NCBI GenBank assembly: GCA_965261545.1
Contig: CBDHDF010000002.1
Coordinates: 1-64,000 of the forward strand
Reading direction: 5' to 3'
From: Bdellovibrionales bacterium
GTDB taxonomy: Bacteria > Bdellovibrionota > Bdellovibrionia > Bdellovibrionales > UBA1609
DNA length: 64,000 nucleotides
In this document: one piece after another, positions 20,747 to 49,277 of the stretch
Position numbering within the stretch: the first letter of the stretch is position 1
How the letters are laid out: every line of letters starts with the position of its first letter
Notes under the pieces: generated by a model
Databases searched by the model: none
What the model was told of the DNA's origin: nothing
What the model saw: only the letters and a program-made list of their open reading frames with translations
Position numbers and translations under genes: made by a program

Positions 20747-21657
20747 AAAAACCTTTTTTTAATAATGATTTTTCTGGTTTCCTTCTGGTATCCCAAGTGG
20801 AGGCTAAACCTCTTTTTTTCCATGATTTTAAATATAATGCGGCAGATTTGAGCTTGACCCACAGGAATTTTATGACTTTCACAAATGGCTTCCAATTGAG
20901 GTAAAACCTTGCTAGCTCTTGTTATCCACAGTTGAATCTCAGAGGTCTTAAGAGTCTTTTCTGAGATATTCCAGAGTTTAATATCTATGAAATAAAGATT
21001 TTCATGGGTTTTTAAACTCTCAATATTAGAAACTATCCCAATGATCTTGTGTCTAATGCCTATTTTTAGCCATTGGTCTGGAGTAGGGCGATGGGGAGAC
21101 GGAGTAAAGCGATGGGAGGGTGAATTAGATCGATGAAAAGATGAAAACTTCTTTCTCTGATGGATATTATTGGTCTTGTTGGTGACTTTCCTCTGACCAT
21201 TTTTTTGACTTCTTCGACTCTTCCTATAACCTGCATTGCTTCGGGAAGACTTCCATCGAACCTTCACCAAGTCGTCGTATTTATTCCCTGAATTTAGCAC
21301 CCTTAAGGTAAACCCATAAGTATGGTATTTCCCATAGACAAAGAGGTTGGTGCTCATGGGTCCTTGGGGTTGTATGGTGACATCATTACCGATAAATTCT
21401 ATTTGGAAATAATTCTGATTTCCAATAACAACCTTCTTTGGGCGTTCATGGAAGCGTAAAATCGTGGATTGCCCCATTTTTAAATAAATGGGTTTCATTT
21501 TTTCATCATTCATCTTAAGGGTTCTGATAGAACCAGCCCTTAGAGATGTTCCAGAAAAAAGAATGCCAGCACACATTATGCTAAGATTTATTGATCTTAG
21601 CATTTTTATCGCCATAGTCGCTCTTATCGTCCTTGCTGCCAACAGTTCTTTTCTCAT
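20743..21657 (-). CDS. TrbG/VirB9 (TraK)-like protein
   Basis: Signal peptide; STILRF.ERPKKVVIG...VTIQP....TNLFV. Confidence 0.7.
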   Translation of the reverse strand: MRKELLAARTIRATMAIKMLRSINLSIMCAGILFSGTSLRAGSIRTLKMNDEKMKPIYLKMGQSTILRFHERPKKVVIGNQNYFQIEFIGNDVTIQPQGPMSTNLFVYGKYHTYGFTLRVLNSGNKYDDLVKVRWKSSRSNAGYRKSRRSQKNGQRKVTNKTNNIHQRKKFSSFHRSNSPSHRFTPSPHRPTPDQWLKIGIRHKIIGIVSNIESLKTHENLYFIDIKLWNISEKTLKTSEIQLWITRASKVLPQLEAICESHKIPVGQAQICRIIFKIMEKKRFSLHLGYQKETRKIIIKKRFL

Positions 21658-22268
21658 TTACTAACCTCATGGGCAGTTTCATGAATAGTAATCCCGTCAA
21701 CATATAAGCCCATGGGATTCCACACGGTGGGGTTGTTCCGAATAATACGGAAGGACAAGCGGGTGGGGGCAATGAGGGGAATATTGTTCACTCTTACAAT
21801 TCTGTCAAAAGAAGCTAAGGCTTGGTTTTTGGTTACAATGGGTTTTATATTAGAGACTGTTTGCTCAATTTTTTTGTTGGATTCTTCTTTACCAAAGTCT
21901 TTTCTTATTTGATCTCTCATCTTTTGAAGAAGCCCCTTTGTCGTGAGGGGAGAAATATTTTGAAGAGCTGAGATGGGGTTGGAGTCACTCCATGTATAGC
22001 GAAGCCTGATATACTCTTCAATGAAACGGGCGATGTCCTTTTCAGAAAGATGAATCTCTTTTTTCTCGGAAGAATAAAATCTCCTCTCCTCTCCCTTTTG
22101 AAGAACCACCACCGGAGGGTTGGTGGACAAGTAGAATGAGAAAACTGTGAGTGAGAAACATAGAAATCCCAATAAAACTCCCATGAGCTTGTAGAGGTAA
22201 AGCACCTTGTTAAGGGCCACCCATTGGTTTGAGGGTTGAATACGATTTTTTGTCATTGTTTTAGTCAT
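21654..22268 (-). CDS. VirB8/TraE-like bitopic protein
   Basis: TM plus PPVVV; C-terminal NPMGLYV motif. Confidence 0.7.
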   Translation of the reverse strand: MTKTMTKNRIQPSNQWVALNKVLYLYKLMGVLLGFLCFSLTVFSFYLSTNPPVVVLQKGEERRFYSSEKKEIHLSEKDIARFIEEYIRLRYTWSDSNPISALQNISPLTTKGLLQKMRDQIRKDFGKEESNKKIEQTVSNIKPIVTKNQALASFDRIVRVNNIPLIAPTRLSFRIIRNNPTVWNPMGLYVDGITIHETAHEVSK

Positions 22269-22277
22269 GGTCTTTTC

Positions 22278-23225
22278 CTATGTGTGTGAGTTTTTGGTTG
22301 TAGTTGTGGTGGAAATTCTGGCTGTCCCAATCGCCCGATTTGTACGAGTCGATCTGGTTGCCCTGGTCGCCTTGGTCAGTTGCCCTATGGGTGAGTCCGT
22401 GGGCGGTGGCGTTTCTGTGGAGGGTCTGCCTAGAGTTCTTGCAAGAGCCCTGCGACCTTTTTGGTTCAGAACTCCTTTCAGGGTTCCACTCAAAGCAACG
22501 GCTGGAGCAAGGGCTAGGGCGGATGCCGTCTTAGAAAGGCCGTCATTGATAAGAGACCTTGTGGTCAGAGGAATAAACAACATGGACAAACCAATGCAAA
22601 GGTTCATCATAATGGTGTATAAGAAATTTTCCATATCTGCCACTTGGGGATTAGTGGCTATTTTTAGAAGTATCACACCGAGGATGGACCACATAATTTT
22701 CCACAAAACCACATGGATGAGCCCCTTATAGAGATTCATTGCTATAAATGCAGTGTTTGCTGAAACATACATGAGTATCATCAAGGGAGAGCAGACATAA
22801 AGAACATGCCAAACAAATTGAACAAGGATATTGGCAATAAAAATGCCTGCGTAAGCCACAACATAGGAGATCACACACAGGATGAACACAATGCTTTCTC
22901 GTAGCTTGAGCCAACTCACTTCCATTTTCTGATAATTGGTTTCTAGGTGAACCAATAGATCCTTTAATTGGCCCATGGCATGTATTTTCTGAGCAATTCC
23001 ATCACCCAAGAAAGCAATTGTATTGAGACATTCTTCAAATGAAATAAGCATAATTATGGAGATCACAACCCTTTTTAGAATTTCATGGACATTGGGGTTT
23101 TGTGATGGAATTTTAAAGAACTCTAAAATAATGGCTAAGAGAGTAAATGGAACCAAGAGAAGCCAATAAAGCTCTCTTATGTTCCCATGGATTTCTTGGC
23201 ACACCTCGGATAAACCTTCAAACAT
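22278..23225 (-). CDS. VirB6/TrbL-like polytopic membrane protein
   Basis: Multiple TMs; position between VirB5- and VirB8-like genes. Confidence 0.7.
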   Translation of the reverse strand: MFEGLSEVCQEIHGNIRELYWLLLVPFTLLAIILEFFKIPSQNPNVHEILKRVVISIIMLISFEECLNTIAFLGDGIAQKIHAMGQLKDLLVHLETNYQKMEVSWLKLRESIVFILCVISYVVAYAGIFIANILVQFVWHVLYVCSPLMILMYVSANTAFIAMNLYKGLIHVVLWKIMWSILGVILLKIATNPQVADMENFLYTIMMNLCIGLSMLFIPLTTRSLINDGLSKTASALALAPAVALSGTLKGVLNQKGRRALARTLGRPSTETPPPTDSPIGQLTKATRATRSTRTNRAIGTARISTTTTTKNSHT

Positions 23226-24028
23226 TATTTAAACCTCCGAAGTGAGAAGTCAGGTTTGAGAGACTTCAAACCACTCTTCATATCTTTGTTAAGTCTATTG
23301 AAAGCAACAACGCTATCTTTTCCGTACTTATTGGTCATGGCGAGATATTCACCTTGGAGTTTGAGAATTTGACCATTGATTTTGAGTATCTGATTAAGTG
23401 TATGCAATATTTTGGCATTGCTTTCAGCCGTCATGCGCATGGCTCCCTTGGGGGAAGCCCCCCGGCTTTGCATGGAAAGAATTTTTGAATTTTGCTCTTG
23501 CCTCTTGGTGTATGGTCCAATAAACCCCACCATCTTAATGCTTTCGGCGACACTTTGGTCATGGAGCATCTGCATGGTGGACTCCATGCTGGGTGGAACT
23601 TCACCATAGACCTTTACAATGGACTTATAGGCTCTATTAAAGTCTTTCAGGCCACTTAAAATTTTGGCATCTTTGATGGGGAGTGAATGAAGCAGACCCA
23701 CGGAATTCTCTAGCCCCTCATTGATCAGTCTTAAATAGTTGTCCTTATTTTTCTCAGTTTCGAGAATCACTCTTAGTTGCTCATATCTTTTCATATTCTC
23801 TGAAAGAATGTTCGCCAAGTAGGGAACCTGTGCCCATCCAGCACCTGCATCGCCTAAGAAAGCATGGGAGCATGGAACTGCAAAGAGATGAATCCCTATG
23901 GAAAGAAGAATGGCTTTTCTAATAAGCTTAATAATGATTTTGCTAATGAGTTTAATAATCTTAATGGCTCTGCTAATAAGTTTAATGACTCTTTTGATGA
24001 GCTTTCGGATGATGGATTTTCGGATCAA
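23225..24028 (-). CDS. VirB5/TrbJ-like secreted helical protein
   Basis: Signal peptide (SHA), helical body, ASPKGAMRMTAE. Confidence 0.65.
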   Translation of the reverse strand: MIRKSIIRKLIKRVIKLISRAIKIIKLISKIIIKLIRKAILLSIGIHLFAVPCSHAFLGDAGAGWAQVPYLANILSENMKRYEQLRVILETEKNKDNYLRLINEGLENSVGLLHSLPIKDAKILSGLKDFNRAYKSIVKVYGEVPPSMESTMQMLHDQSVAESIKMVGFIGPYTKRQEQNSKILSMQSRGASPKGAMRMTAESNAKILHTLNQILKINGQILKLQGEYLAMTNKYGKDSVVAFNRLNKDMKSGLKSLKPDFSLRRFK

Positions 24029-24072: not shown

Positions 24073-26817
24073 CTATGGGGCCTCCTTTTTGCCTTCAAAG
24101 GCAATTTTTTTAAGAATTTCTAACTTTGGTAGTTTGGGATATTTTCTTGCCATGGCTTCAATGGCAGCTTTATCAAAACCATCTGTGGTGCATATCCAGT
24201 AACTCAAAGGATCTGGGGTGAGTCGAATGACAGCCTTATTTTCATCCTGCATAAAAAAGAACTCACTGAAACGCCCCTTTTCAAGGGAGAGGCTTTTGAT
24301 GACTTCCACTTCATCGTTGTTGAAATCCATGACCTCTTGGAAATCTTTCCAGTCTATTTTCTTTTGGCGGAGAATAAAGACACTTGCTGTATTGGGAAAA
24401 ATGGCATTTTTGATTTCTTGGCTAGAGAGAAAATCCTTGTAGTTTTGGCTAATGCACCAAATGCCTCCATTGAACTTCCTAAAGGTACGGTAGGCTTCCA
24501 TGGCAAAGCTGAGGCCACTGGGTGTCTCAAAGAGTTTCCATGCCTCGTCGATAATGAGAAGGTAGGGGGTGGAGAGGTCACGGGCAGCTTCGCTCTTTAT
24601 AAAATCTGTAAAGAGGAGCAAGAAAACGTTTTGTAAATCGGGGTAGGCGTCAAGCCCCTTCGTCTCAATAGTGATAAGGTCTTTAGTGAGCTTCACATTG
24701 CTGGGACCATCCAGCATTTGACCGTAGGCGGTGTTTCCCGTCCAAGAGTAAAGAGTTTGAGCAAAGTTTCTCATCTCTAAAACTTCATGTTTAGAGAGGA
24801 TTTTTCTCAAATCTGATAAAATGGGCACTCGGCCCTTGGTTTGTTCATTGTTGGTTTGTTTATGGATTTGCTCGGCCTGTTCATTGGTTTGTTCATGAGT
24901 TCGCTCATTGTTCGTTTGCTCACTGTTCGCTTGCTCATAGGTTTGAAAGATAGCCTCTTCGAGAAGGGCTTTTTCTCTCTTGGGAAGCCCTCTTTTTTCC
25001 TCATCCTTCAGGATGGACTCCAGCACAGCCAAGATCAGTTTCACCTTTGATGTTGTGGGCGTGGTTTGAGTCGTGGTGGTGGTCTGGTCTTCTGACGAAA
25101 GATCAAACATATTGAGCCTTATCTTTGAGTCTATGTTGAGGTTGATAAACTCACCTCCATGGACTTCAAGAAGCCTTTGGGAAGAAGCCCCGTTGTCCAC
25201 CCAAATGATTTTGGGTCTTGGAGTTTGGGTGCAAAATTGCAACATCATTTGAGAAATGGTAAAGCTCTTACCCACGCCAGAGCCACCAAAGATGAGGGCA
25301 TTCCAGTTGGTAAGCTCTTTGGCAAAGGGGTCCATGGAAAACAAAACTCCATATCTATTTGGAAACAAGCACACGGGTTTGCTGTGCCCCCTCCAATAGG
25401 AATAAAGGGGCATCAAGTGGGCGACATTGGAGCTTTTCATTTTTTTGGGTCTGAGCCCACGAGTGCTTCCGGGAAAAGTCATGGAAAAAGCTTCAAAGCC
25501 TGGCAAAGTCTCCACCACCCCTTCGGATTGATTCATTCGCTTAAAGGCACTCAGCACCTCATCTGCTTTTTCTGTTAGCTCCTCTCTTCCCTTGCCCCAA
25601 ATAATCACATTGAGGTCTGTGGAGACGAGTTTTTCTGAACCCTCAAGAAGCTCTCTCATTAAATCCTCAATCTGATAGAGCTTGGACTCAGATTCTAGGT
25701 CACTGATATTTTGCGGACTTGAGGTCATGGAGTGGGCAAGCCTTCTTTGCACTTTCAACTTCTCAACCTCTGACTTTTGCCTGTGAATTTGGATATTTTG
25801 CAAAAGCCAAAAGTGGAAGGGCAGGCTTGTGAGATGATGGATCATGGCTGCATGGGTTTCCTCTTCGGGAAGAGTCTTCATTGTGATGACTTGGAAAAAG
25901 TAGTTCCCACACTTTATACAATCCTCATAGATGCCTATATCCGTAAAGAGGATTTGGTGGGCAAGGCTTGGGGCAAAAAGGTCGTAAAACTCTGACAAAG
26001 GCTCATGGAGGCCAAATTTTGACGAAGGGGGCTCAGGTTCCCCAAGTTCTAGTGAAGGCTCAAGTTCCCCAAGTCCTGACAAAGGTTCAAATTCCCCAAT
26101 CCCTGACGAAGGCTCAAAGTCTTCAAGTTCCTCAATATCTTCTGGGGACTTAATATCACCAAGATCAGAGAGACCAGAAAAATCACCAAGGTCAGCAAGT
26201 CTGCCGTTTTCCTTCCAATGGGGAGGGCCAACCTTCTCACTGCGAGAGAGATTGAAGTATTCAAACAACAGGCCGGTCCACTGTGAACTCTCAAGTTCTA
26301 CAGGGGCAAGTCCTCCATCCTTGAGTAAAAAGAAAAGTTGCCTGCGGTTTCTTTCAAAGGTTTTCTTGTGTTCATCGTACTCTTGCTTGGAAGACTGCTG
26401 AAATTTCTCTTGAGATTTCCAAAATCCTTGGCGTTTATACTTAAGGGGCTCTCCCCGAAGAAACAAGTAAGTTTCTGGCAAGAAATACTCGCCTTGGTGC
26501 TTGTTCAAGAAATCAATTCTTGCCTGCACTATCTCTTGTTGTGCTTTATTTGAGGTCACCGAGATTTTTTCATGCTCTTTGATGGTTTCAGAGACATGGG
26601 GAGTTAACCTGTAAAAGACCTGGAGAGATAGACCTTCAGGAATGGAAGTCAGAAGGCTCCCCATCCTTCTATTAAAGTTGTTGACGCTCTCGGTGGAAGT
26701 GCAACTTATATCCATGCCATTGAGTTTAAATCCTGCCCCTAGGGAGCCATCGGAAAAAACCATGAGATTTTCATCAAAGTGCCAAATGGGTAGTTTATCT
26801 GCGAGAGCGTGAGTCAT
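24073..26817 (-). CDS. virB4: VirB4/TraC T4SS ATPase with repeat insertions
   Basis: NALIFGGSGVGKS, IIDEAWKL, RTFRKFNG...ISQ. Confidence 0.93.
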   Translation of the reverse strand: MTHALADKLPIWHFDENLMVFSDGSLGAGFKLNGMDISCTSTESVNNFNRRMGSLLTSIPEGLSLQVFYRLTPHVSETIKEHEKISVTSNKAQQEIVQARIDFLNKHQGEYFLPETYLFLRGEPLKYKRQGFWKSQEKFQQSSKQEYDEHKKTFERNRRQLFFLLKDGGLAPVELESSQWTGLLFEYFNLSRSEKVGPPHWKENGRLADLGDFSGLSDLGDIKSPEDIEELEDFEPSSGIGEFEPLSGLGELEPSLELGEPEPPSSKFGLHEPLSEFYDLFAPSLAHQILFTDIGIYEDCIKCGNYFFQVITMKTLPEEETHAAMIHHLTSLPFHFWLLQNIQIHRQKSEVEKLKVQRRLAHSMTSSPQNISDLESESKLYQIEDLMRELLEGSEKLVSTDLNVIIWGKGREELTEKADEVLSAFKRMNQSEGVVETLPGFEAFSMTFPGSTRGLRPKKMKSSNVAHLMPLYSYWRGHSKPVCLFPNRYGVLFSMDPFAKELTNWNALIFGGSGVGKSFTISQMMLQFCTQTPRPKIIWVDNGASSQRLLEVHGGEFINLNIDSKIRLNMFDLSSEDQTTTTTQTTPTTSKVKLILAVLESILKDEEKRGLPKREKALLEEAIFQTYEQANSEQTNNERTHEQTNEQAEQIHKQTNNEQTKGRVPILSDLRKILSKHEVLEMRNFAQTLYSWTGNTAYGQMLDGPSNVKLTKDLITIETKGLDAYPDLQNVFLLLFTDFIKSEAARDLSTPYLLIIDEAWKLFETPSGLSFAMEAYRTFRKFNGGIWCISQNYKDFLSSQEIKNAIFPNTASVFILRQKKIDWKDFQEVMDFNNDEVEVIKSLSLEKGRFSEFFFMQDENKAVIRLTPDPLSYWICTTDGFDKAAIEAMARKYPKLPKLEILKKIAFEGKKEAP

Positions 26818-27125
26818 AGAATCCTCTTTTGTCTTTTGGGTTCAAATTTTCCTACATTGCCAGCACTATAAACCCCTGGAGTCATCTTGTAGGTTAGGAG
26901 GTGAAGGAAGTAGTTCTCAGGCTTATTTCTTTTGACGAAATACAAGACCACAGCCATCATCACGGGTAAAATGAAAACAAGGTAGGTGGCCAAGAAGGTG
27001 GAGCCAAAAAATAGATTCATGGTGGCTGCAAATAGGAGAATAAAAAGAAGATCGTGAGCCTCCATGCCCACAACCTTAAGTTTGGCATCTAGTCTTCGAT
27101 GAATTCTTGAAGTCTCCAAAGCCAT
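26814..27125 (-). CDS. VirB3/TraL-like membrane protein
   Basis: IHRRLD..LKVVG.E..D, two TMs, directly upstream of virB4. Confidence 0.75.
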   Translation of the reverse strand: MALETSRIHRRLDAKLKVVGMEAHDLLFILLFAATMNLFFGSTFLATYLVFILPVMMAVVLYFVKRNKPENYFLHLLTYKMTPGVYSAGNVGKFEPKRQKRIL

Positions 27126-27584
27126 TTAGTACCCCACCGCAGCTTGGAACCAGCTAATAATATGGGGAGCAAGAAAGCCCACAATACTGCATACAATCAC
27201 CATGATGATTCTGCCCTTGGCGGCACCATCTCCTGTAAGGGCGAGAATCACCGCATACACAAGGCCCAAAACACTTATAAGGGGAAGTATCACGGTCATA
27301 AGCTGATTTGTGAGCCCCTTCATACGGCTTTCAAAGCCACTTCCAAGAAGCTGAGACCACGCTGTTTCTGAGTAGTAAAGGGCCAACATCACCAAGAAAA
27401 AAATGGCGACCCACTTCAAAGAAGCCCTTAAGGTTGTGAATTGATTCATTTTGTCCACTTCGTTCGCCACGTTTGCCTTGTTCGTCTCGTTCACCTTGCT
27501 TACTTCGTTCGCCTCGTTTACTTTGCTCATCTCGCCCGCTTTGTTCATATTGCTCATCTCGTTTACCTTACTCATCTTGCTCAC
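27126..27584 (-). CDS. TrbC/VirB2 pilin-like protein with repetitive N-terminal extension
   Basis: Signal plus two hydrophobic helices; first gene of the T4SS block. Confidence 0.75.
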   Translation of the reverse strand: MSKMSKVNEMSNMNKAGEMSKVNEANEVSKVNETNKANVANEVDKMNQFTTLRASLKWVAIFFLVMLALYYSETAWSQLLGSGFESRMKGLTNQLMTVILPLISVLGLVYAVILALTGDGAAKGRIIMVIVCSIVGFLAPHIISWFQAAVGY

Positions 27585-27981
27585 CTTCTGGGCTTCCCAT
27601 GATAAGAGACCTACTATAAGGACCGATATTCATAATCACATCCCCCTGGGTAAGAGCATTTGAGTGGCCTTCACCCACTGACTTGCGTGTCTTAAATTTT
27701 CCATTCTTTTTGATGACCACCTCCACTCGATAGCGAGTTCGATCTCCCGTGGATAAAATGGGCTTGAGGTAGTATTGATTCTCTGGGTGTATATCAATTT
27801 TCAGTCGATATTCCCCAAAGTTATGCTCATGAAAAGCAACTCCTGCTGGGAAGTGACGCTTTTCTTCTTTATCAAACCACCACAATTGAAATACTTTGGA
27901 TTTCTTATCTCCTTGATATTCTTTAATTTTCTGATTTTTTTGATCTTCATGAGATGATTGAAAGTTCTTTGTTTTTTTCAT
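27568..27981 (-). CDS. Hypothetical protein
   Basis: GGAGG RBS; overlaps pilin start. Confidence 0.7.
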   Translation of the reverse strand: MKKTKNFQSSHEDQKNQKIKEYQGDKKSKVFQLWWFDKEEKRHFPAGVAFHEHNFGEYRLKIDIHPENQYYLKPILSTGDRTRYRVEVVIKKNGKFKTRKSVGEGHSNALTQGDVIMNIGPYSRSLIMGSPEGEQDE

Positions 27982-28083
27982 GCTTTATCCTCCAGAATTT
28001 GTTTTCAGAATCATCGATTCTGATTCGGGTTCTTAGTTCTTATAAATCGTTGATATTTTTCCCATTCAACATAAATACATTCC

Positions 28084-28359
28084 CTAATTGTTCAGTTCAT
28101 CCAGCATAGATTCCTTCATTATCTCTAAAGACTCATTAATAAGGTGATCTGTTTGAGACCAATCCAGATGAAGCACCATAGATATTTCTAAAATAGAAAA
28201 GTGATACCAAAATCGAAGTATAATAGAAATTTTATGTTTCTCTGGTAACCTTGCCACATGTTTCCTTACCCACTTTCTTCCATATTCAATAAGTTTCTTT
28301 TCATAAATGAATTGCTTCAAAAATAAATCCTCGCTTTTATAGGTTTGTAAGTCTTCCAT
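28084..28359 (-). CDS. Sigma-70 region 4-like HTH protein
   Basis: LPEKHKISIILRFW...SILEISMVL pattern. Confidence 0.6.
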   Translation of the reverse strand: MEDLQTYKSEDLFLKQFIYEKKLIEYGRKWVRKHVARLPEKHKISIILRFWYHFSILEISMVLHLDWSQTDHLINESLEIMKESMLDELNN

Positions 28360-28362
28360 CCA

Positions 28363-28773
28363 CTAAGAAATGCGACGTAAATCTCCTTTCACGGGGTGTT
28401 GATGTTCATAACCACGACCACCGCCATCACTATGACTATAGACATGCTGCTTATCCTCATGAATTTGGAGTTTTTGAGCCATATTAGCCTCTTTAGTCTT
28501 CTGAGCCTTCTTAAGTCCTTGAGACTGAGATTTGAGATGCTGACTTTTTGGAGGCTGAGACTTCGCATTCTCGTCATTGAGTACATCGTCAACTTCTTTG
28601 AGCATTTTTTCTAAATCAGCACACATGGGGTAGTAGTAGGATTGGCTTCTCAAAGCTTCCTCCTGGCTATCCCTAGGCTGCCAATTGCATGAATAGCAAA
28701 TCGTGTAGGATTCTCTTTCTTCCAAACTTAAGCATTTGCATCTTGGGCATTGATTCAACGTATTCGTCTTCAT
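28363..28773 (-). CDS. Zinc-ribbon protein with low-complexity tail
   Basis: CPRC...CYSC; AAGGA RBS. Confidence 0.65.
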   Translation of the reverse strand: MKTNTLNQCPRCKCLSLEERESYTICYSCNWQPRDSQEEALRSQSYYYPMCADLEKMLKEVDDVLNDENAKSQPPKSQHLKSQSQGLKKAQKTKEANMAQKLQIHEDKQHVYSHSDGGGRGYEHQHPVKGDLRRIS

Positions 28774-29083
28774 ATTCGTATCCTTTCTTGATATTGATCT
28801 TGTAAATGCTCATATCCAGAGGATCGGAGCATGCGTCTTGTTTATTGTCCTTAATCATTTCTGTTATGTAGTTTCTGACTCACCATCCTCTATCAGTTCA
28901 AAGGAAATCACAAAATGGCCAAATTTATACTTTCCCGTTCCTAAAGAGACAAAAATTGTCAGTCGTTACATTTAATTATTTTCTTTAATTTAAATTCTTT
29001 TCTTCAATTTCTTGGGTCGATAGAAATCAAATTCCAAACCTCCAAAATAATTAATTTAAAATTTTACCCCTCACGTTTATAGT

Positions 29084-29130
29084 TGCGAAATCTATGCCAA
29101 CTTTATTTGTGAGATATTTCAATGACTTAG
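29084..29130 (-). promoter_or_regulatory. sigma54 -24/-12 promoter with adjacent IHF-like site facing the transfer operon
   Basis: TTGGCATAGATTTCGCA (GG-N10-GC) at 29100-29084; TTTCAATGACTTA at 29117-29129. Confidence 0.65.
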
Positions 29131-29381
29131 AGAGAGATAGAGTCGAATGACGAAAAAGAAAAAACTTTTTTAAGTACGAAATAAAGTACATAAAAAAAGA
29201 ATTCATATTTATTTAATATCTTATAAATATATAGTAATGATTGATCAGATTATTTTTTAAGAAATTTATCTTGAAATAAATCATCTTTTATTGTATAATA
29301 ATTTGTACATCATTTGAAAAATACTCCCCAAAGGATTGAAATCAAGTTACGAAAGACATGAAAGAATAACTGGAGAGACAA

Positions 29382-30755
29382 TTGAGTGAAATATTGAAAG
29401 ATCCATTAAAAAGCAAAGTCGTCAGTGTGCATGTTATAGAGGACAGCAAATTAGACTCTGAACTCATTCAAGATCTCATCAAAGTAGAACTAAGAAAGTG
29501 TGGATTGACCCCCAAGGTTTCAGCCACATTCAAAGAAAAAAGCTCTTATAGTGCTTTAAATCAAAATAACTATGATATTGTGGTTTTTGATATTGATCTA
29601 GATCGAAGAATGGCAGGGATTGACCTTCTTGGTATGTTTACTAAAAAGGTACAGTTTCCGATCATCTCCTCTTGCCGTGAGTCAGATGATATCGTAAAAA
29701 AAGCTTACAGTCTAGGTTGTGAGCACTTTTTAAACAAGCCTATCAAGCAGTCAAAGATTGCCCATCTGGTCGATCAATATACAAAGCAAATAAACTCCAA
29801 GAGCATCTTGCGAGTTATAAAATCAAGATACATGACCCAAGATGAAGAGACCCTCAGTGAGCTTAATAAAGTCACTTCATCGAAAAATGCTCATTTATTT
29901 GGACCCACAGGGGTAGGCAAACAAATCGTCGCTGAACTTATTCATCATATACATTATGGCAACTCAAACCCCTTTGTTGAAAAGAACTGTTCATCTATCA
30001 CAGAGTCTCTTGCGGAGTCCTTCCTTTTCGGCCATGAAAAGGGAGCCTTCACAGGTGCCAACAACCAAAGAAAGGGTATCTTTGAGCTTGCCAAGGGAGG
30101 CACCGTCTTCTTAGATGAAATCGATAAGACATCAAAGTCTTTTCAAGCCAAGTTATTAAAAGTTATAGAGAAAAAGGAAATTCAAAGGGTTGGATCTGAA
30201 AAATCAACACCTGTTGACTTCTCGCTGGTCACAGCAAGTAGTACAGACCTTAATTTCCTTGTGGAAAAGGATAAATTCTTACCTGATCTTTGGGAAAGGC
30301 TTCAGGTGGAGGTCATTCACTTGAAACCTCTGAAAGAACGTCCCTTGGATATAGAGCTACAAATGCAGAATTTCATTAGGCTTCATGAGTCAGGAAGACT
30401 GTTTGTCATCTCTGAAGAAGCCCATAAGTTTTTGATGAGTTACCACTGGCCAGGAAATACAAGGGAATTAAAAAACGTTGTGGACAGCTTACAAAGGAAG
30501 AATATCAAGATTCTTGAACTCAAAGACCTTAAATTCTTACAAAAAAAATCCATCAGACAGCAATATGGCCTCGTCAATCAACAAATACTTCAGGCCATGG
30601 AACAAAATGGACTCAAAAATGTCGTCAATCAAATATGCCGGGAAGCAGTTCATCATTTTTTCACTCAAAATGATGGGAAAAGAAGAATCACAATGAGGCA
30701 GCTTGAAATTAGCTCAGATACTTTATACAGACACTTAAAAGAAAATATGGGGTAA
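29382..30755 (+). CDS. NtrC-like sigma54 enhancer-binding response regulator (REC-AAA-HTH)
   Basis: VIED/FDID/KP REC; GPTGVGK, LFGHEKGAFTGA, FLDEID, WPGNTREL; ISSDTLYRHL. Confidence 0.95.
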   Translation: MSEILKDPLKSKVVSVHVIEDSKLDSELIQDLIKVELRKCGLTPKVSATFKEKSSYSALNQNNYDIVVFDIDLDRRMAGIDLLGMFTKKVQFPIISSCRESDDIVKKAYSLGCEHFLNKPIKQSKIAHLVDQYTKQINSKSILRVIKSRYMTQDEETLSELNKVTSSKNAHLFGPTGVGKQIVAELIHHIHYGNSNPFVEKNCSSITESLAESFLFGHEKGAFTGANNQRKGIFELAKGGTVFLDEIDKTSKSFQAKLLKVIEKKEIQRVGSEKSTPVDFSLVTASSTDLNFLVEKDKFLPDLWERLQVEVIHLKPLKERPLDIELQMQNFIRLHESGRLFVISEEAHKFLMSYHWPGNTRELKNVVDSLQRKNIKILELKDLKFLQKKSIRQQYGLVNQQILQAMEQNGLKNVVNQICREAVHHFFTQNDGKRRITMRQLEISSDTLYRHLKENMG

Positions 30756-30758
30756 AAA

Positions 30759-30977
30759 ATGAATTTAACAAAAGAAGAAATAAAGCACGATTTGAAAAGA
30801 AATATAAGTTCTATTTTATCTGGAACAACAATGATAATGAATAAGATTCCTAAGATAGATATTTATATTCGAGAAACAATAGAAGAAATAGAAAAGCAAT
30901 GTGAACAAACATTTAAACTGTTAGACATTTTCACGGAAAGTAAAGATGAAAATAAGAAAAAGCCAAAGGAGGTATAA
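30759..30977 (+). CDS. Stand-alone HisKA/DHp-like protein
   Basis: KHDLKRNISSILSG H-box-like motif and two-helix pattern. Confidence 0.55.
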   Translation: MNLTKEEIKHDLKRNISSILSGTTMIMNKIPKIDIYIRETIEEIEKQCEQTFKLLDIFTESKDENKKKPKEV

Positions 30978-30978
30978 A

Positions 30979-31299
30979 ATGAGAAAAATATGGACCATAC
31001 TTGTTGCTATGCTCGGAATGTCGAGTAATGCATCTTCCGCATACTCTGGTTGCTATGATGAAGCCATGGAAGTTTCAACAGACAGCAACCTTGAAGTGAG
31101 TCTAGAACAAAGTGCAGAAGAAGATTTTGATGAACTTGATAGAATCATGGATTTATACCCACATGCTAGTATTGATGAAAAAGTTGGAATGAGCTTTAAA
31201 GCACATAGAATAGCGGATCGTCTTGAGCGTCAAGGTTTTGATGTTGCTGATTCTATGTCTCAATCATCAAGAACATGTGACTATTGTGTGAAACCATAA
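30979..31299 (+). CDS. Secreted small protein, candidate RiPP precursor (106 aa)
   Basis: AGGAGG RBS before ATG 30979; signal-like N-terminus, acidic middle, C-terminal SMSQSSRTCDYCVKP. Confidence 0.7.
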   Translation: MRKIWTILVAMLGMSSNASSAYSGCYDEAMEVSTDSNLEVSLEQSAEEDFDELDRIMDLYPHASIDEKVGMSFKAHRIADRLERQGFDVADSMSQSSRTCDYCVKP

Positions 31300-31344
31300 C
31301 ATTCAATCATTATTGATGGCATAAGAAAGGATATAAATTCAAGA

Positions 31345-32901
31345 ATGAAAAATAAATTTATTTATATTATTTTATTTATATTCATTATTGTTATAACTTA
31401 TAGTTTCATTCGTGAGCAAAGGAATAAGTCAATGTTGATTCAGACAAATTTAATAAGTTTTGAACCAGAAGACACAATGGACCCCACAAGACTCAGGTTT
31501 GTCCAAGAATATTTTGTGCTTGATAACGTCACGGCAAAGCTCACTCAAGTGGGAGACGATGGTGAATATAAAAATGATCTTGCTGAGCATATTAGTTTCT
31601 CTGATGATAAACTCACCATAGATGTTCAATTAAAGAATGATGCTAGATTTAGTGATGGAAGCCCTATTTTAGCTCAAGATGTGGCTCAATCATTCAAAAG
31701 ATCCATATTATGGGGAGTGCCCCATATTGATCTAAAAAATCTTTGGATAGGAGCCGATCAGCTTAAATCTATAAATGAAGATATACCAGGCATTGAGGTT
31801 TTATCCAACAAAGAGTTGCGACTCAAGCTTATCAAACCCACTAAAGAAGTTCTTTTTTTTCTCACAATAACCGACCTTGCCATACTCCATAAGAGTCAAT
31901 ATACAAAGACTCATTTAAAAGTTTCTGACTGGGAAAGAGTAACTTCTGGTGCTTATAGAATAGGCTACACCAATGAAGGTAGAGTCATGCTCATTTCTAA
32001 TAAGAGTTCTCATAATTTTAAAGAGGCCATGCCTCAGAAAGTCGTTTTCAATGGGTATAAGAACGCCAATGTGATTCGACAAATTGAAGAAAAGAGCTTG
32101 GACTTTGGAATGTTGACTCTCAGTGAATATTTTCCTAATGTAGAAAAAATTGAATCCTCCAAGGATTTTGATATTGTGAGCAATAAGACAGATGGTGTCG
32201 TTCATATTGTTCTCAATGCCGCATCAGGGCCATTTGAAAATATTGAGAATCGTCAATGGATCCAGAAAAAAATGATGGAAACCTACAAAATTGATGAAAA
32301 AGACTCTTCTGTTTTAACCAAAGCTCTTCAGTTTTTTCTCCCAAACTCCAAGGGTCATAAAGATGGTGCTGACGTTCTAAGCATTCTCAAAGACATTAAT
32401 ACTTCAAATATTCCTGAAGAATTAAAAAAAGGAATCACCATAAAAACTCTAGAAGGAATGAAGTATTTTTTACCGGATAATATGGAAATAAAATTATCTC
32501 AAACCTTAGGCATTCCAGTAAATTTGGAAATCAATATTCCAAAAAAAGAGTATTTTCAATCCATTGACAAAGAAAGAACTTTTGATGCCACTATTATGGC
32601 TATCTCCATGGACTATAAAGTTCTCAATGAGGCTCTCAATCTTCAATATTTATCTGAAAATAGTCCCCTTATCGATCCCACAGGGAAAATAAAAGAACTT
32701 CTTAAGTCCTATCAAGGTGAAGATGATCTTGAGAAAGAAAGTGAAATCATTAATAAGATATTGAATCAAATGATTTACGATTCAGAATCAATTCCCATTT
32801 TTTATTTTGCATCCCCATTTCTTATAAAAAAAGATACCATTCAAAGCTCAAGTGTGAATTTTCATGAACCCATTAAATTTCACAAAATGGTGATGAAATG
32901 A
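31345..32901 (+). CDS. Family 5 (OppA/DppA-like) solute-binding protein, membrane anchored, no cognate permease
   Basis: DLAE.I.FS.D.LT....LK.DARFSDGSPILAQDVAQSF; SGAY. Confidence 0.88.
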   Translation: MKNKFIYIILFIFIIVITYSFIREQRNKSMLIQTNLISFEPEDTMDPTRLRFVQEYFVLDNVTAKLTQVGDDGEYKNDLAEHISFSDDKLTIDVQLKNDARFSDGSPILAQDVAQSFKRSILWGVPHIDLKNLWIGADQLKSINEDIPGIEVLSNKELRLKLIKPTKEVLFFLTITDLAILHKSQYTKTHLKVSDWERVTSGAYRIGYTNEGRVMLISNKSSHNFKEAMPQKVVFNGYKNANVIRQIEEKSLDFGMLTLSEYFPNVEKIESSKDFDIVSNKTDGVVHIVLNAASGPFENIENRQWIQKKMMETYKIDEKDSSVLTKALQFFLPNSKGHKDGADVLSILKDINTSNIPEELKKGITIKTLEGMKYFLPDNMEIKLSQTLGIPVNLEINIPKKEYFQSIDKERTFDATIMAISMDYKVLNEALNLQYLSENSPLIDPTGKIKELLKSYQGEDDLEKESEIINKILNQMIYDSESIPIFYFASPFLIKKDTIQSSSVNFHEPIKFHKMVMK

Positions 32902-33908
32902 AGCACGCTCAATCCTTAAATATTTTAAAGAATGTAATAAATTATTTTCAATCACTACCAGATCATCAATTAAAAGTGAAGGATATTAGTTCCGAGCATT
33001 TTACTCTTCCTTGCATGTTCTCTGTATCTGTTAACCACCGAGGAAATCAAATGCAAGGGTTCGGTCAATCTGAATCTAAAGATAAGGCTATTTTTATTGC
33101 TTTTATGGAAATTATTGAAAGAATCCTAATACCAAAGCCTAAAGACTTGACCTACTCACAGAAATATCTTTTTTTCTCTATCAGAAAAAATTATGAGGAT
33201 CTTTTAAAGTCATTTCCTAGATCGAGAAATTGGGTTGAAGGCTCTTCCAATGGTTTTGCCATTCATTCGAGTAGAAAAATGGCTCAAAAATCAGCTCTTG
33301 ACGAACTTATTGAGCGGCATGTTGTACTTAAAGCTCTTGTTTCTCAGTTTTCTCCGGCCAAGGTGTTAGCACCTAAAATACTTACCCATGGGAGCTATGT
33401 GATTCCCTCCGAGATGACCTATGAGTTTTATGCTTGGTTAGGACCTTTGGGCAGACATGTGGTTCTTTTTAAATGCCAGATGAATTCAAAGGTGATCTAT
33501 GGGTTTGGATGTGAGAAGAGTCTAGAAAGAGCCAAGGAGAAGGCTTTTTTTGAAGCTAGCTCTAGGATTATCGCACTCCACCGATCTCAGAATCCTTCCT
33601 TTGTAGTTCTCAATACGAGTAAAAATTTCCTTTATCATTGGTATGAGGAGACTGCCTGGACAGGAGGGTTTCTTAAAAAAGCCTCCCATGACATGCCATC
33701 TATAGATCACCACCTTTCATACAGTGATTTTTGGTTTGGTGAGCCTCCAAAAAATGAACTTCTCCACCAACTGGGCCTCCATGTTGTCAAGGCTGTTTCC
33801 CCAAAGATTCAGCCACTTTTTTCAGGGCACTGGAAGGCCAAATATATGAACCCCGAAGCTCTAGGGAATGACTACAGCTTTCCAGAAGACATGCATATGA
33901 TTGGGTAA
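32898..33908 (+). CDS. YcaO-like enzyme
   Basis: GFGQS.....A...AFMEIIER; SSNGFAIH....AQKSALDELIERH; AFFEA; C-terminal PEDMHMIG. Confidence 0.82.
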   Translation: MKHAQSLNILKNVINYFQSLPDHQLKVKDISSEHFTLPCMFSVSVNHRGNQMQGFGQSESKDKAIFIAFMEIIERILIPKPKDLTYSQKYLFFSIRKNYEDLLKSFPRSRNWVEGSSNGFAIHSSRKMAQKSALDELIERHVVLKALVSQFSPAKVLAPKILTHGSYVIPSEMTYEFYAWLGPLGRHVVLFKCQMNSKVIYGFGCEKSLERAKEKAFFEASSRIIALHRSQNPSFVVLNTSKNFLYHWYEETAWTGGFLKKASHDMPSIDHHLSYSDFWFGEPPKNELLHQLGLHVVKAVSPKIQPLFSGHWKAKYMNPEALGNDYSFPEDMHMIG

Positions 33909-33914
33909 ATTGAT

Positions 33915-35648
33915 ATGAAAAATCGATCCATACGAATCTCTATTTTATTGGCAGCCACCATGAGTCTTTTGGCTCTTGCCACTGTGATGCTGATATTCTT
34001 ATCAAAGCACGAGGTGGAAAGAATTCAAGCCAATACTCAATCCCTGGTGCGTGAGCAAATAGAACTCACAGTTAAGAAATTAGATATCTATAGAGTGGTC
34101 AATCAAATATCATATATTCTCAATATCACTTTCAATCTGGATCGTGTGAATGGAGTCAATATCTTTGATTCCAAATGCAACTTAGTGGATAAGCAACCTG
34201 TTAATTTTAAAATCCCATGGGACTGTAAGAGCCCTCACCCTGATTCTATGGTTCTTTATAAATCTCAAACCTCGATTTCTGACTCTTCAGGAGCCCCCAA
34301 ATATATATTGGCTCGCCTCAAAGATGAGCCCCATATTCTCTTGAATCACCATAGCTTGAAGGTTCTCGTCATATCATTAGTTTTGATTCTTATCACCTTA
34401 CTTTGCTTGAACTTTTTAATGAAAAAACATATTTTAAGGCCCATTGACGAGTTGATAAGAATCATTAGAAAACCTGGCGCTCTTGAGAGGAATAGTCAGA
34501 AACAACAAAAGCTTCCCTTGGAACTAAGAGAAATTTATAATGATGTTTTGTCTCGTGACGAAATCATCCAGCAGAATAAAATTGAACTACTCAAAAGAAA
34601 TGAAATGGAAACACGAAGCCATTTAAGTGAGCAAGTCGCCCATGATATCAGGTCACCCATTATGATTCTTAGAGACTACCACTTAAATCACTTAAATTTA
34701 CATAGAAACGAGGATACAAAAGAAAGCGTATACCTCAATGCCATTAACGATCTGGACCTCCTCACCAAGCAATTGATTGAAGACTCTAGTGAGTATGCAA
34801 AAAATGTCAATCTCGTGGGCTTAATGGATGCCCTCGTCGACATGAAAGAAGTTGAATTTCAACAAGGGCCTAAATCTAAGATATTGTTGAATCCTCAGTC
34901 TAAGAATTTGAAGATTAAAACCAATCCCACAAAATTAAAATTTGTTCTCTCCAATATTATTAATAATGCCAGGGAGGCTTCTAAGAAGGATGACCCTTGT
35001 GAGATTCAAATCAAGTTGACAAGAAAGGGGTCTAATGCCTTCATTGAGATTGAAGATAACGGGAAAGGTATCAAAGAATCAGACATTAAGAGAGTCTTTT
35101 CCCGAGGGGTGAGTATAGACAAGCCTGGAGGCAACGGCTGGGGACTCAGTGATGCCAAAAAATTTATTGAGAGCCAAGATGGGACTATCGAGATAGAGTC
35201 AAAACTCAACAAGGGAACCACTGTCAAAATAAATCTCCCCATACTTCTCTCGAACTTTCAATCTCGTGGGAAAGCCCCCTTTGACCATGTTTTGGTGGAA
35301 GACTACAAGCTCAGCCAACTTCTATGGCTTGAAAAGGCTGATAGCAAAAAACTCAACTTCGCAGCCTTCTCTTCCCCCTCAGAGTTTTTAGAAAATATGG
35401 AATTGGTGAGTCCCAATGCCACCTTGTATATCGACTCTCACTTTCCCGATTTTCCCATGCGTGGCGAAGAATGGGCCAGAGAACTTTACAGTAAGTATGG
35501 ATTCAAAAAAATATATATGTGCTCCACATCCCCCATCGACATCACCGACATGCCATGGATCAAAGCGTGCATTGCCAAGCATAAGCCATTTGATCGTCAA
35601 TTAAAAGAAATGATAAATTGCAACACATCACAGTGTATTAAAATTTAA
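33915..35648 (+). CDS. Membrane histidine kinase with C-terminal receiver-like domain
   Basis: 2 TM; QVAHDIRSP, NIINNA, EDNGKG, GNGWGL, GTT; LVED...YID. Confidence 0.93.
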   Translation: MKNRSIRISILLAATMSLLALATVMLIFLSKHEVERIQANTQSLVREQIELTVKKLDIYRVVNQISYILNITFNLDRVNGVNIFDSKCNLVDKQPVNFKIPWDCKSPHPDSMVLYKSQTSISDSSGAPKYILARLKDEPHILLNHHSLKVLVISLVLILITLLCLNFLMKKHILRPIDELIRIIRKPGALERNSQKQQKLPLELREIYNDVLSRDEIIQQNKIELLKRNEMETRSHLSEQVAHDIRSPIMILRDYHLNHLNLHRNEDTKESVYLNAINDLDLLTKQLIEDSSEYAKNVNLVGLMDALVDMKEVEFQQGPKSKILLNPQSKNLKIKTNPTKLKFVLSNIINNAREASKKDDPCEIQIKLTRKGSNAFIEIEDNGKGIKESDIKRVFSRGVSIDKPGGNGWGLSDAKKFIESQDGTIEIESKLNKGTTVKINLPILLSNFQSRGKAPFDHVLVEDYKLSQLLWLEKADSKKLNFAAFSSPSEFLENMELVSPNATLYIDSHFPDFPMRGEEWARELYSKYGFKKIYMCSTSPIDITDMPWIKACIAKHKPFDRQLKEMINCNTSQCIKI

Positions 35649-35773
35649 GGATCGTAAATGATACTTTATACCATTGCATATAATTTTCTATGAACTTAAA
35701 GAAGATTGAATAATTAAAAATATAATTGACATTTGATATATAAATGAATATGATAATACAGCGTAGCTAAGGA

Positions 35774-40846: not shown

Positions 40847-40939
40847 AATCATATAATATTTTATTTTTACTTTAATAAATGCTAAACTATTTTAATTTAT
40901 TTCTAAATATTCAATGATATTGAATATGGAGTATTATTT

Positions 40940-47209: not shown

Positions 47210-47261
47210 AGATCCCCACTTTTGGGGAAGGAACCCGCCAGTTATCCACAAAATTTATCCA

Positions 47262-48919: not shown

Positions 48920-49277
48920 TGGTGGAGGTGGTGGGAATTGAACCCACGTCCATAAGTCTTTCACATTAAGGCAAAGCTACATGCTTAGTCTATGTTTTAT
49001 AGGTGACTTATAGACCTCCACAGACAAAGTGCTATAAGTCCCTCCTCCAGATGATTTAAGTCGCAACTCCTGGAGAAACCAAATTTGCGACCGAGGTAGT
49101 TTGAGTGACATCTCTCCATACCCACTACCTTAGTGCGAAGAGATGTAGCTGAACCGATTAGGCAGCTAGTGCATAGTTGCTATTATCAACTATAGTTTTA
49201 CCCGTTTTGAAGAGGACCTCGGGTGCCTCTGCATGCTCCTTAAGCTTCAATACCCATGTCGAATCCGTGTCACCCCC
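48920..49277 (-). ncRNA. ssrA: tmRNA
   Basis: GGGGGUG/CACCUCC-ACCA acceptor stem with G3.U70, GGAUUCGAC, T arm, tag frame DNSNYALAA* at 49187-49158. Confidence 0.97.

Follow-up and report, generated by a model that had tools for sequence, protein, structure and literature searches.

A candidate YcaO-peptide signalling circuit facing a sigma-54-type promoter of conjugation genes in a Bdellovibrionales mobile element

To our knowledge, the established roles of YcaO enzymes lie in antibiotics, toxins and enzyme maturation, and signalling is not among them. What, then, is a YcaO enzyme doing in one operon with an orphan peptide-binding protein, a membrane kinase and a sigma-54 activator, back to back with a set of conjugation genes? 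The question is raised by a stretch of 64,000 nucleotides from a Bdellovibrionales bacterium (GenBank assembly GCA_965261545.1, contig CBDHDF010000002.1, positions 1 to 64,000), which as a whole is called the window below. The initial annotation proposed a path from a modified peptide through an OppA-like receptor and a kinase to a sigma-54 activator and the transfer genes. On the present analysis, the chances are about even that the six genes form one sensory circuit of the autoinducer type that gates the transfer genes of the element. The parts concerned are the following.

29084..29099, minus strand: candidate sigma-54 (-24/-12) promoter TGGCATAGATTTCGCA, of the form GG-N10-GC, facing the type IV secretion system (T4SS) operon
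29382..30755, plus strand: sigma-54 enhancer-binding protein (the activator), 457 amino acids (aa), with Pfam domains Response_reg, Sigma54_activat and AAA_lid_14
30759..30977, plus strand: 72-aa helical His-box protein, candidate stand-alone phosphotransfer protein resembling the dimerization and histidine phosphotransfer (DHp)/HisKA domain
30979..31299, plus strand: small protein predicted to be Sec-exported, 106 aa, candidate YcaO substrate (longer open reading frame (ORF) 30946-31299)
31237..31296, plus strand: C-terminal tail FDVADSMSQSSRTCDYCVKP of the small protein with CxxC, proposed modified core
31345..32901, plus strand: membrane-anchored orphan SBP_bac_5 (OppA/NikA-type) binding protein, 518 aa, Pfam E 2.3e-23
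32898..33908, plus strand: stand-alone YcaO enzyme, 336 aa, PF02624 at 46.7 bits
33915..35648, plus strand: membrane histidine kinase, 577 aa, HATPase_c E 1.3e-19 (Pfam)
24073..28773, minus strand: promoter-proximal part of the T4SS operon (Pfam, NCBIfam)

The six ORFs lie on the plus strand between 29382 and 35648 with intergenic gaps of 3, 1, 45, -4 and 6 nt, as tightly packed as was first described. A terminator scan found no terminator between the six genes, and the sole terminator-like site (29703-29724) lies inside the activator gene. The operon diverges from an F-like T4SS operon, which is preceded by the -24/-12 motif TGGCATAGATTTCGCA, and this part of the annotation holds as well.

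Forty loci were examined, consisting of the window, L008, L009, L006 and sets of 16 and 20 further loci (L007 is the L008 element from another metagenome). An SBP_bac_5 gene abuts the YcaO gene in 28 of the 40 (4 of the first 4, 14 of the 16 and 10 of the 20), and 25 of these 28 have a kinase gene within the cluster. Among the other 12 are canonical YcaOs of 399 aa next to ABC-type ATPases (L053 and L069) and YcaO-kinase pairs in which no binding protein was detected. Within the order around the L006 genome, a metagenome-assembled genome titled Bacteriovoracaceae, a YcaO-family profile matched 52 of 238 genomes at E<=1e-8, while the 60 relatives of the window's own genome yielded 3 weak matches only and no relative was found on viral contigs. 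The impression of a tiny family (17 YcaO relatives in 5.8 billion word-indexed proteins) was thus an undercount, an artefact of the word prefilter. L010, with a distant 341-aa YcaO in another context, is not part of the cassette YcaO family. The L006 genome (G061) harbors three YcaO-family paralogues of ~320 aa, on contigs C14, C15 and C10, so cassettes can be multi-copy per genome.

A receiver-AAA+ activator heads the cassette in 12 loci (the window, L008, L051, L052, L055, L056, L058, L060, L061, L063, L065 and L066). In nine of these, the cassette lies back to back with an operon whose first genes are sigma-70 region-4-like and are followed by those of a T4SS, and the divergent arrangement is kept while protein identity drops to ~40%. 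The promoter-proximal part of the window operon encodes a 136-aa Zn-ribbon-like, a 91-aa sigma-70 region-4-like, a 137-aa, a pilin-like, a TraL-like and a TraC/VirB4 protein, the last of 914 aa, and is homologous to the L008 operon at 44-55% identity. Pilin, TraL and TraC are encoded in the transfer operons of the window, L008, L051 and L052, and TraU or a T2SSE ATPase in those of L055, L058 and L065, whereas L060 and L061 were recognised by transfer proteins that match L055 and L058 at 100% and 80-88% identity. In two L055-type loci (genomes G160 and G242), the operon runs on to TraE, TraK, TrbI, TraC, an FtsK-like ATPase and an integrase. TraC relatives form at least 200 clusters, the named ones from Bdellovibrionota; they are so numerous that the cassette must be an accessory of a subset of this element family.

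Three observations concern the transfer operons themselves. The T2SSE ATPase, region-4-like and 332-aa proteins of L055 (G160) and L060 (G133) are 100% identical and their small proteins are identical too, which suggests a very recent horizontal transfer of the element; since these identical elements sit in two species-level genomes, the two loci were counted as one lineage. In the window, the 136-aa protein, which has a CxxC...CxxC N-terminus and is overlapped by a 61-aa ORF (28363-28858), replaces the region-4-like first gene of L008. An FtsK/SpoIIIE-type ATPase occupies the expected place of a VirD4-type coupling protein in the F-like operons of the window (18031-19530), L075 (5412-7001) and L076 (9532-11157), and Pfam and NCBIfam recognise no relaxase in these three operons.

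It is very likely that transcription of the T4SS operon depends on the activator and sigma-54. The -24/-12 motif with which this operon was said to begin is present at 29099-29084 of the minus strand, with two mismatches to TGGCAC-N5-TTGCW, and is unique in the window as the only match to TGGCAY-N5-TNGCW on either strand of the 64 kb. The genome has rpoN (425 bits, over the cut-off), and thus both hallmarks of a sigma-54 regulon, rpoN in the genome and GG-N10-GC upstream of the target, are found. When motifs were scored out of 11, with GG required for counts at >=9, a motif of at least 9 faced the transfer operon in seven of the nine T4SS-linked loci (the window, L008, L051, L055, L058, L060 and L061). 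In L051 the motif is a perfect TTGGCACGCTCCTTGCAT, ~45 nt ahead of the transfer operon's first gene. Sites scoring at least 10 are rare, numbering 31 in 1.77 million scanned positions, and 12 of them fall in or beside ~6.8 kb of these intergenic regions. A motif of at least 9 also faces the module itself in 8 of the 12 activator-bearing loci (L052, L055, L056, L058, L060, L061, L063 and L065, and not the window), which fits self-activation in those loci. As for upstream activator sites, only AT-rich, low-complexity inverted repeats were seen, with nothing in common with L008.

The annotated GAFTGA-containing receiver-AAA+ activator was borne out by Pfam (Response_reg E 1.1e-10, Sigma54_activat E 2.4e-49) and by EKGAFTGA in its translation. 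Receiver, AAA+ domain with GAFTGA and a C-terminal helix-turn-helix (HTH) give it the make-up of the NtrC class, the HTH being seen by eye only, with HTH_8 not called in the window protein. Homologues were found in L008, L051, L055 and L066, and HTH_8 is weakly matched in that of L055 (E 7e-4).

The 72-aa protein had been read as a lone HisKA-like protein, which hidden Markov models (HMMs) do not confirm, as it has no Pfam or NCBIfam match even at E<=10; a PDB profile search with its alignment returned designed helical repeats only. What speaks for the reading is the His box, KHDLKRNISSILSG in the window and LHNLLAKHSSVMSG in the L008 homologue, in which H10 is invariant (two of two aligned sequences), together with the company the protein keeps. 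Its nearest ESM Atlas clusters (66-75 aa, score 0.97) have PF00512 HisKA in 41-80% of their members, which is a lead only, and a 65-aa protein at the same position in L066 has a visible H-box and HisKA as its best Pfam match, sub-threshold at E 0.028.

In the kinase, two predicted transmembrane segments flank a periplasmic part of ~120 aa, and an H-box AHDIRSP is seen in the sequence. Pfam recognises HATPase_c in the kinase and calls no receiver at the C-terminus, so that the "hybrid" in the annotated hybrid kinase comes from a profile of four homologous kinase C-termini (~residues 452-554 in the window kinase), which matches PDB receivers (3luf at E 5.2e-5, YycF and CovR near 0.1). E8, D9 and D53 (an acidic pair and an Asp) and a Trp are invariant in the four aligned sequences of this receiver-like domain, which also occurs in 17 kinases of related loci. 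Both "hybrid kinase" and "lone HisKA-like protein" are reasonable readings, neither being HMM-grade. The 72-aa gene co-occurs with a hybrid kinase in the window, L008 and L066, and is absent from L051 and L052, where the kinase ends with HATPase_c and is non-hybrid. The association of the 72-aa gene with hybrid kinases is incomplete, however, as L055-type loci have receiver-like kinase ends without the gene.

The binding protein has an N-terminal membrane anchor and, as distant PDB relatives, AapF, OppA and YejA. It matches the SBP_bac_5 HMM and lacks the ABC partners of that family, with no permease or ATPase among the window ORFs scanned with Pfam and no ABC-ATPase signature in any cassette locus. 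By sequence it is thus a member of SBP_bac_5 and by context an orphan, as annotated. In L042 (8534-10002), the binding-protein gene is split into ORFs of 225 and 253 aa and is probably a frameshifted or decaying copy.

That the fifth gene encodes a YcaO-like enzyme is clear from the PF02624 score (cut-off 25.7 bits, E 3.7e-12), from the fold and from the retained ATP/Mg-binding acids. The homologues of L008, L009, L039 and L051 match PF02624 as well. An AlphaFold2 (AF2) model built on 16 family sequences reached a predicted local distance difference test (pLDDT) score of 89.4 and a predicted template-modelling score (pTM) of 0.90. Among the top Foldseek matches in the PDB through rank 40 (16 listed), all are YcaO entries with probability 1.00 and template-modelling (TM) scores of 0.41-0.61, including LynD, McbD, MJ1094, the M. 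kandleri and E. coli YcaOs and a YcaO peptidase; the best PDB profile match of the family is the stand-alone MJ1094 (E 7.4e-8). In the alignment to E. coli YcaO, E71, E74 and R75 pair with E75, E78 and R79, and E136 and E139 with E199 and E202; E75, E78, E199 and E202 of the E. coli protein we take to be ATP/Mg ligands. Among the family sequences from the loci, E136 and E139 are conserved in 40 of 40 and R140 and E219 in 39 of 40 each, and the 24 sequences aligned over E71, E74 and R75 all retain these three residues.

The start of the small protein was set at the internal Met at 30979 because homologues start there. As annotated, it is a small secreted protein with a Cys-bearing tail, consisting of a Sec-type signal peptide (residues 1-21), a helical hairpin (~38-84), an RxG motif (84-86) and a flexible tail, SQSSRTCDYCVKP, with a CxxC end. 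In the AF2 model, residues 41-90 have pLDDT 71-89 in 10-residue blocks, the DSSP helices of the hairpin span 38-84, and residues 93-106 of the tail fall below 50 and are predicted to be disordered. R84, G86 and C100 are invariant in six sequences, and the CxxC is kept in all six complete proteins of the window type (subfamily A). Among 1.84 billion representatives searched with a profile, 12 proteins matched at E<=0.001, and an ESM Atlas search was uninformative (best score 0.77).

Looking across the loci, an ORF with a signal peptide (53-171 aa) stands directly upstream of the binding-protein gene on the same strand in 25 of the 26 loci in which the 5' side of that gene is present, the ORF of L067 being doubtful. 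In composition the tails favour Cys, Gly, Ser and Thr, and a Cys occurs within the last ~20 residues of 23 of the 26. Beside the window type ending in C-x-x-C, there are short-peptide forms ending in GCGKCN, TGCSRC, GCGTCIHSYH, GGCSGTGHC or SCSGCIKC, one type ending in ...RRGNIRDVVSRGGTICF, and a GG type ending in GG-x-[RK]-W-G-S-[IV]-G-x-P... in which Cys is optional (three of six GG-type proteins of the combined set have no tail Cys). Two close proteins, P0018 and P0019, differ at 3 of 87 positions in the body and at 9 of the 17 tail positions, where both CxxC cysteines are retained; the YcaOs matched to them are 79% identical, the pairing of P0019 with P0002 itself being presumed.

The YcaO alignment was paired with that of residues 22-106 of the small protein for a model of the complex, next to three controls. 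The pair scored 0.71 (runs 0.71, 0.66 and 0.74) and the best control 0.00, against a mark that solved complexes reach in 116 of 157 cases and mismatched pairs in 2 of 215; these counts are only rough here because our own alignments were used. The runs share at least 37% of their contacts, and the pLDDT of the partner is at least 61. In the confident interface, residues 24, 26, 44, 51, 53 and 236-250 of YcaO meet residues 57-84 of the small protein, that is, the helix immediately before R84-x-G86 and the tail, and the YcaO loop 240-242 is the sole segment with pLDDT below 50 in the monomer model. The model supports binding of the small protein by YcaO, with a memory effect possible since solved YcaO-peptide complexes exist. 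A unit making a ribosomally synthesized and post-translationally modified peptide (RiPP) would have a precursor gene next to the modifying enzyme, with a recognition part and a modified core; the adjacent small ORF (25 of 26 loci) and the modelled interface upstream of a disordered tail make the locus a candidate for such a unit.

These parts can be arranged into a circuit of five steps. The stand-alone YcaO would bind the helical body of the 106-aa precursor in the cytoplasm and, using ATP, modify the flexible tail at its C-terminus, the likeliest reaction being conversion of one or both CxxC cysteines to thiazoline; that the tail is what YcaO modifies is probable. The product would then be exported by Sec and relieved of residues 1-21 by signal peptidase, as its sequence leads one to expect, and the tail may be released after R-x-G. 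Free or attached, the modified tail would be bound by the membrane-tethered OppA-like protein acting as co-receptor of the periplasmic domain of the kinase, a step for which the odds are slightly below even. Phosphate would pass from the kinase His to its own receiver-like domain, on to the 72-aa His-box protein and from there to the receiver of the activator; the relay domains were seen, and the path through them is our proposal. The activated AAA+ protein would finally open the sigma-54 promoter at 29099-29084, and the T4SS operon would be transcribed. As the maker of the signal and its receptor are co-encoded, such a circuit would act as an autoinducer switch, of quorum or kin type, for transfer, and it may respond to cell density. 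The path first proposed is supported by conservation of the genes, the promoters in seven of nine loci, the fold and residues of YcaO and the complex model. The cassette is not specific to conjugative elements.

Several findings count against this circuit. Most cassettes have no activator. Three of the 12 activator-bearing loci have no transfer genes, namely L056 (with Cas12-like, Cas4 and Cas1 genes as neighbours), L063 (insertion sequence genes) and L066 (SNF2 and RpoD). The gene set was expected beside transfer genes in other genomes, which is the case for nine of the 12 activator-bearing loci and fails for most cassette copies, which have neither activator nor transfer gene nearby; a tie of the cassette as such to conjugative elements has to be given up. 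The absence of T4SS genes near activator-less cassettes is itself weak evidence, because the four T4SS profiles that found no match in nine such loci with several kb of context also miss the L055-type operons. The idea that the activator occurs only beside T4SS genes is likewise refuted by L056, L063 and L066. In L056 (1336-5563), an 898-aa Cas12f-like TNB-domain protein, Cas4 and Cas1 stand where the transfer genes would be.

Other adverse points lie within the individual parts. L052 keeps only the -12 part of a motif facing its transfer operon, without a good -24, the motif of L065 scores 8, and the -12 of L008 reads GG and not GC. Pfam recognises neither HisKA in the 72-aa protein nor a receiver in the window kinase. 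The 72-aa gene is found in only three loci, and L055-type kinases end in a receiver-like domain by eye (sub-threshold cREC_REC matches at E 0.025 in L055 and E 0.052 in L063, with none detected by the A2 receiver profile), yet their loci lack the gene. A Cys in the tail is not universal, being absent in L044, L047 and L067 and in P0142, P0144 and P0146, and within the clade of L055, L058, L061 and L065 the tails are conserved and not variable. The complex model does not put the tail in the active site, and its peptide part is weak (mean pLDDT 63).

The enzyme, too, lacks the usual company. Azoline-forming YcaOs have a proline-rich C-terminal motif and an E1-like/RiPP recognition element (RRE) partner or fused domain, and thioamide-forming YcaOs usually, although not universally, have a TfuA partner. 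The window YcaO ends in ...PEDMHMIG (in the family, ...DMHMIG or ...FNIVA) and not in the proline-rich motif, no E1-like/RRE partner gene is in the operon, and the match to TIGR03604 SagD is at 36.9 bits against a cut-off of 219; it is thus not of the thiazole/oxazole-modified microcin (TOMM) type by these marks. No TfuA-like gene is among the window ORFs scanned, and Pfam and NCBIfam find no dehydrogenase, TfuA, E1-like/RRE partner, dedicated protease or exporter at the locus.

The sensory module might instead listen to something that is not its own product. The OppA-like protein would then bind an exogenous peptide, derived from cell walls, prey or host, and the modified small protein would have an accessory role in the periplasm, for instance as a tethered competitor, inhibitor or adaptor, and would not be a diffusible signal. 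AapF, OppA and YejA, the PDB relatives of the binding protein, do bind external peptides or nickel, the confident helical hairpin (pLDDT 71-89) resembles a folded protein more than a throw-away leader, and both the conservation of tails between species in one clade and the lack of a protease or exporter gene would suit such a role. We consider this unlikely, though a serious alternative, in view of the small ORF that accompanies the binding protein and YcaO in 25 of 26 loci and so appears integral to the cassette, of the one close pair with a diverged tail on a conserved body, as for a specificity-determining ligand, and of the sigma-54 promoters facing the module in 8 of 12 loci, which fit self-amplification. 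The same periplasmic setting would allow the small protein to bind metal or sense redox state, with YcaO installing Cys-derived heterocycles or thioamides and the binding protein and kinase reading the loaded or oxidised state. CxxC is a common metal or redox motif, nickel and metallophore binders are among the relatives of the binding protein (weak NCBIfam NikA-type matches, E 3e-6, far below the cut-off), the periplasmic part of the kinase has a Cys pair, and a copper P-type ATPase lies ~3 kb downstream of the L008 kinase gene. A precedent exists in the bufferins, which are copper-binding RiPPs of 80-120 residues that bear Cys and are exported by Sec (PMC11626156). Such a role is nevertheless improbable, since the copper pump is found in one locus only, the window module is not accompanied by genes for metal resistance, several tails contain a single Cys or lack one altogether, and it is hard to see why metal status should govern a transfer operon.

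Two further alternatives break the circuit at its ends. In one, the transfer operon is not under the activator: the -24/-12 match would have arisen by chance or would drive only a small leader transcript, and the module would regulate other genes, its adjacency reflecting co-mobilised cargo. The ~300 nt between the motif and the first long ORF of the window transfer operon, the three activator-bearing loci without transfer genes nearby and the lack of an identified upstream activator site are compatible with this. It is hard, on the other hand, to see how chance would keep the motif at the equivalent place and in the same orientation in seven of nine T4SS-linked loci from distinct clades, gather 12 of the 31 strongest matches in 1.77 million positions in these intergenic regions and preserve the divergent arrangement at ~40% protein identity, and we rate this alternative as quite improbable. 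At the other end, YcaO might act on another target, to which the small ORF would be unrelated to YcaO. Examples are the kinase and the binding protein, or else a housekeeping protein in the way that ribosomal protein S12 has been proposed for E. coli YcaO. The PDB title of E. coli YcaO names it an S12 methylthiotransferase accessory factor, and there is no RRE or leader-binding partner at the locus. The small protein, however, passes in the complex model while every control stays at 0.00, its ORF accompanies the cassette in 25 of 26 loci, and its tails abound in Cys, Gly, Ser and Thr as the cores of azoline RiPPs do, which leaves another target very improbable indeed.

The circuit in which YcaO modifies the small protein and the sigma-54 activator serves the transfer operon would be carried by an element with the following further features.

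8433-9773: integrase
17213..24028, minus strand: further T4SS genes, encoding VirB9-like and TrbI/VirB10-like proteins and an FtsK/SpoIIIE-type ATPase (Pfam, NCBIfam)
29271..29299, plus strand: sigma-70-like promoter candidate TTGAAA-17-TATAAT, ~80 nt upstream of the activator gene
48920-49277: tmRNA gene

The T4SS operon, the integrase and the tmRNA gene together identify an integrative conjugative element. The sigma-70-like candidate has 11 of 12 consensus matches and is a consensus match only, the total promoter counts of the region in a promoter scan not being above those of shuffled sequences. Seven sequencing runs from two studies are listed; five contain the stretch, and no RNA run containing it is among them.

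A second copy of the element is present in the same genome (C11:419815-444876), 96-98% identical and with all six genes intact. Its kinase has 44 residue differences, all after residue 178, so that the sensor half is identical and the cytoplasmic half differs. When C11:419815-457273 is compared with window positions 11010-48926, the cargo between the kinase and resolvase genes is swapped. In the window, this cargo begins directly after the kinase gene with an ankyrin-repeat protein of 1327 aa (35774-39757; 99-bp tandem repeat units at 37013-38171), which has its own sigma-70-like promoter (35726-35754) and is replaced by other cargo in the second copy. It is followed by a type II Zorya-like defence trio (39848-42519) comprising ZorA2 (E 1.1e-44; at 332 aa short of the 420-590 aa of its models), ZorB2 (E 4.1e-58) and the HNH nuclease ZorE2 (E 3.8e-30). 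A 740-aa AAA_13 protein in 59324-62843 matches the candidate defence family PDC-S06 (E 4e-290) and is followed by a DUF2130 protein. The genome is densely populated with insertion sequences, and in the window such elements lie at 2737-4625, 4895-6309, 44394-47261 and 63264-64000 (Mutator-type, DDE_Tnp_1, IS21 with IstB and one more), each with dozens of near-identical copies across the 11 contigs of the genome.

The wiring of the proposed circuit resembles that of Vibrio LuxP/LuxQ-LuxU-LuxO, in which a binding-protein co-receptor and a hybrid kinase act through a His phosphotransfer protein on a receiver-AAA+ sigma-54 activator, and the NCBIfam LuxO and LuxQ models have sub-threshold matches in the window. 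In contrast to the Lux system, the binding protein is of SBP_bac_5 and not of LuxP type, the middle protein resembles a HisKA/DHp hairpin and not an Hpt domain, the signal would be a YcaO-made ribosomal peptide and not autoinducer 2, the target would be a T4SS operon and not Qrr RNAs, and all parts lie in one operon on a mobile element. With agrBDCA and comQXPA, the operon shares a precursor, a modifying enzyme, a membrane kinase and a response regulator in one unit, as well as pherotype-like variation in the signal part, seen in one pair (9 of 17 tail against 3 of 87 body positions); it differs from them in using YcaO, Sec export, reception by binding protein and kinase, output through a sigma-54 activator and a T4SS that spans the outer membrane.

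Among systems that regulate transfer, pCF10 with its OppA-like PrgZ and ICEBs1 with RapI-PhrI likewise have an element-encoded orphan OppA-like protein and a small secreted peptide upstream of the transfer genes. There, the Opp permease takes up the peptide, which then acts on a receptor in the cytoplasm, whereas the window has no permease or RRNPP-type receptor and its kinase would take the signal at the membrane. Control of conjugation by peptide pheromones is a paradigm from Gram-positive bacteria. ChvE-VirA-VirG regulates T4SS genes through a binding protein and a kinase, and TraI/TraR of the Ti plasmid places conjugation under density control in a Gram-negative host; these use plant sugars and phenolics or acyl-homoserine lactone (AHL) signals and sigma-70-type activators, with no peptide, YcaO or sigma-54. 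Since AHL quorum sensing is known to control Ti-plasmid transfer in Gram-negative bacteria, the novelty would lie in the peptide/YcaO chemistry and the wiring and not in density control. We know of no use of YcaO, of an SBP_bac_5 co-receptor with a kinase, or of sigma-54 on a T4SS operon in the Lux, agr/com or PrgZ systems.

The enzyme itself shares its fold (Foldseek probability 1.00, TM 0.5-0.6), its ATP/Mg-binding acids and its approximate size (MJ1094 has 385 aa) with MJ1094 (6pe3/6peu), M. kandleri YcaO (6ci7) and McbD of the microcin B17 synthetase (6gri). It differs from them in very low sequence similarity (profile E 7.4e-8 at best), a different C-terminus, the lack of TfuA, E1-like partner and dehydrogenase at the locus, a substrate with a Sec signal peptide and partners that are signalling proteins. 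RiPP precursors with a Sec signal peptide are uncommon but do exist, as bufferin precursors are Sec-exported RiPPs modified before export; bufferins serve in copper buffering and not in signalling, are made by MNIO/DUF692 enzymes and not by YcaO, and have DUF2063 and DoxX-type neighbours in place of a binding protein and kinase (PMC11626156). The initial annotation knew of no description of the arrangement, and in the literature searched, as far as its text was available, none was found, whether of a YcaO accompanied by a binding protein, a kinase or a sigma-54 activator or of an integrative conjugative element whose T4SS is under sigma-54 control.

It is conceivable, and we put it forward tentatively, that the locus represents a YcaO-tailored, thiazoline-type ribosomal peptide autoinducer in diderm bacteria, exported by Sec, read by an orphan OppA-like co-receptor with a kinase and relayed from His to Asp to His to Asp to a sigma-54 activator, such that the element transfers only on sensing its own type of peptide. 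The four-gene cassette would then be a widespread, undescribed signalling family in Bdellovibrio-like bacteria with pherotype-like diversification of its peptides. As the cassette is small and self-contained and has many natural variants (at least 28 loci), every step can be tested in E. coli. If true, bacterial signals would gain a new chemical class, reception would follow a new logic, with a kinase fed by an orphan binding protein of ABC type, and DNA transfer could be switched on by way of sigma-54. The cassette would also offer a handle on the spread of mobile elements among predatory and host-associated bacteria.

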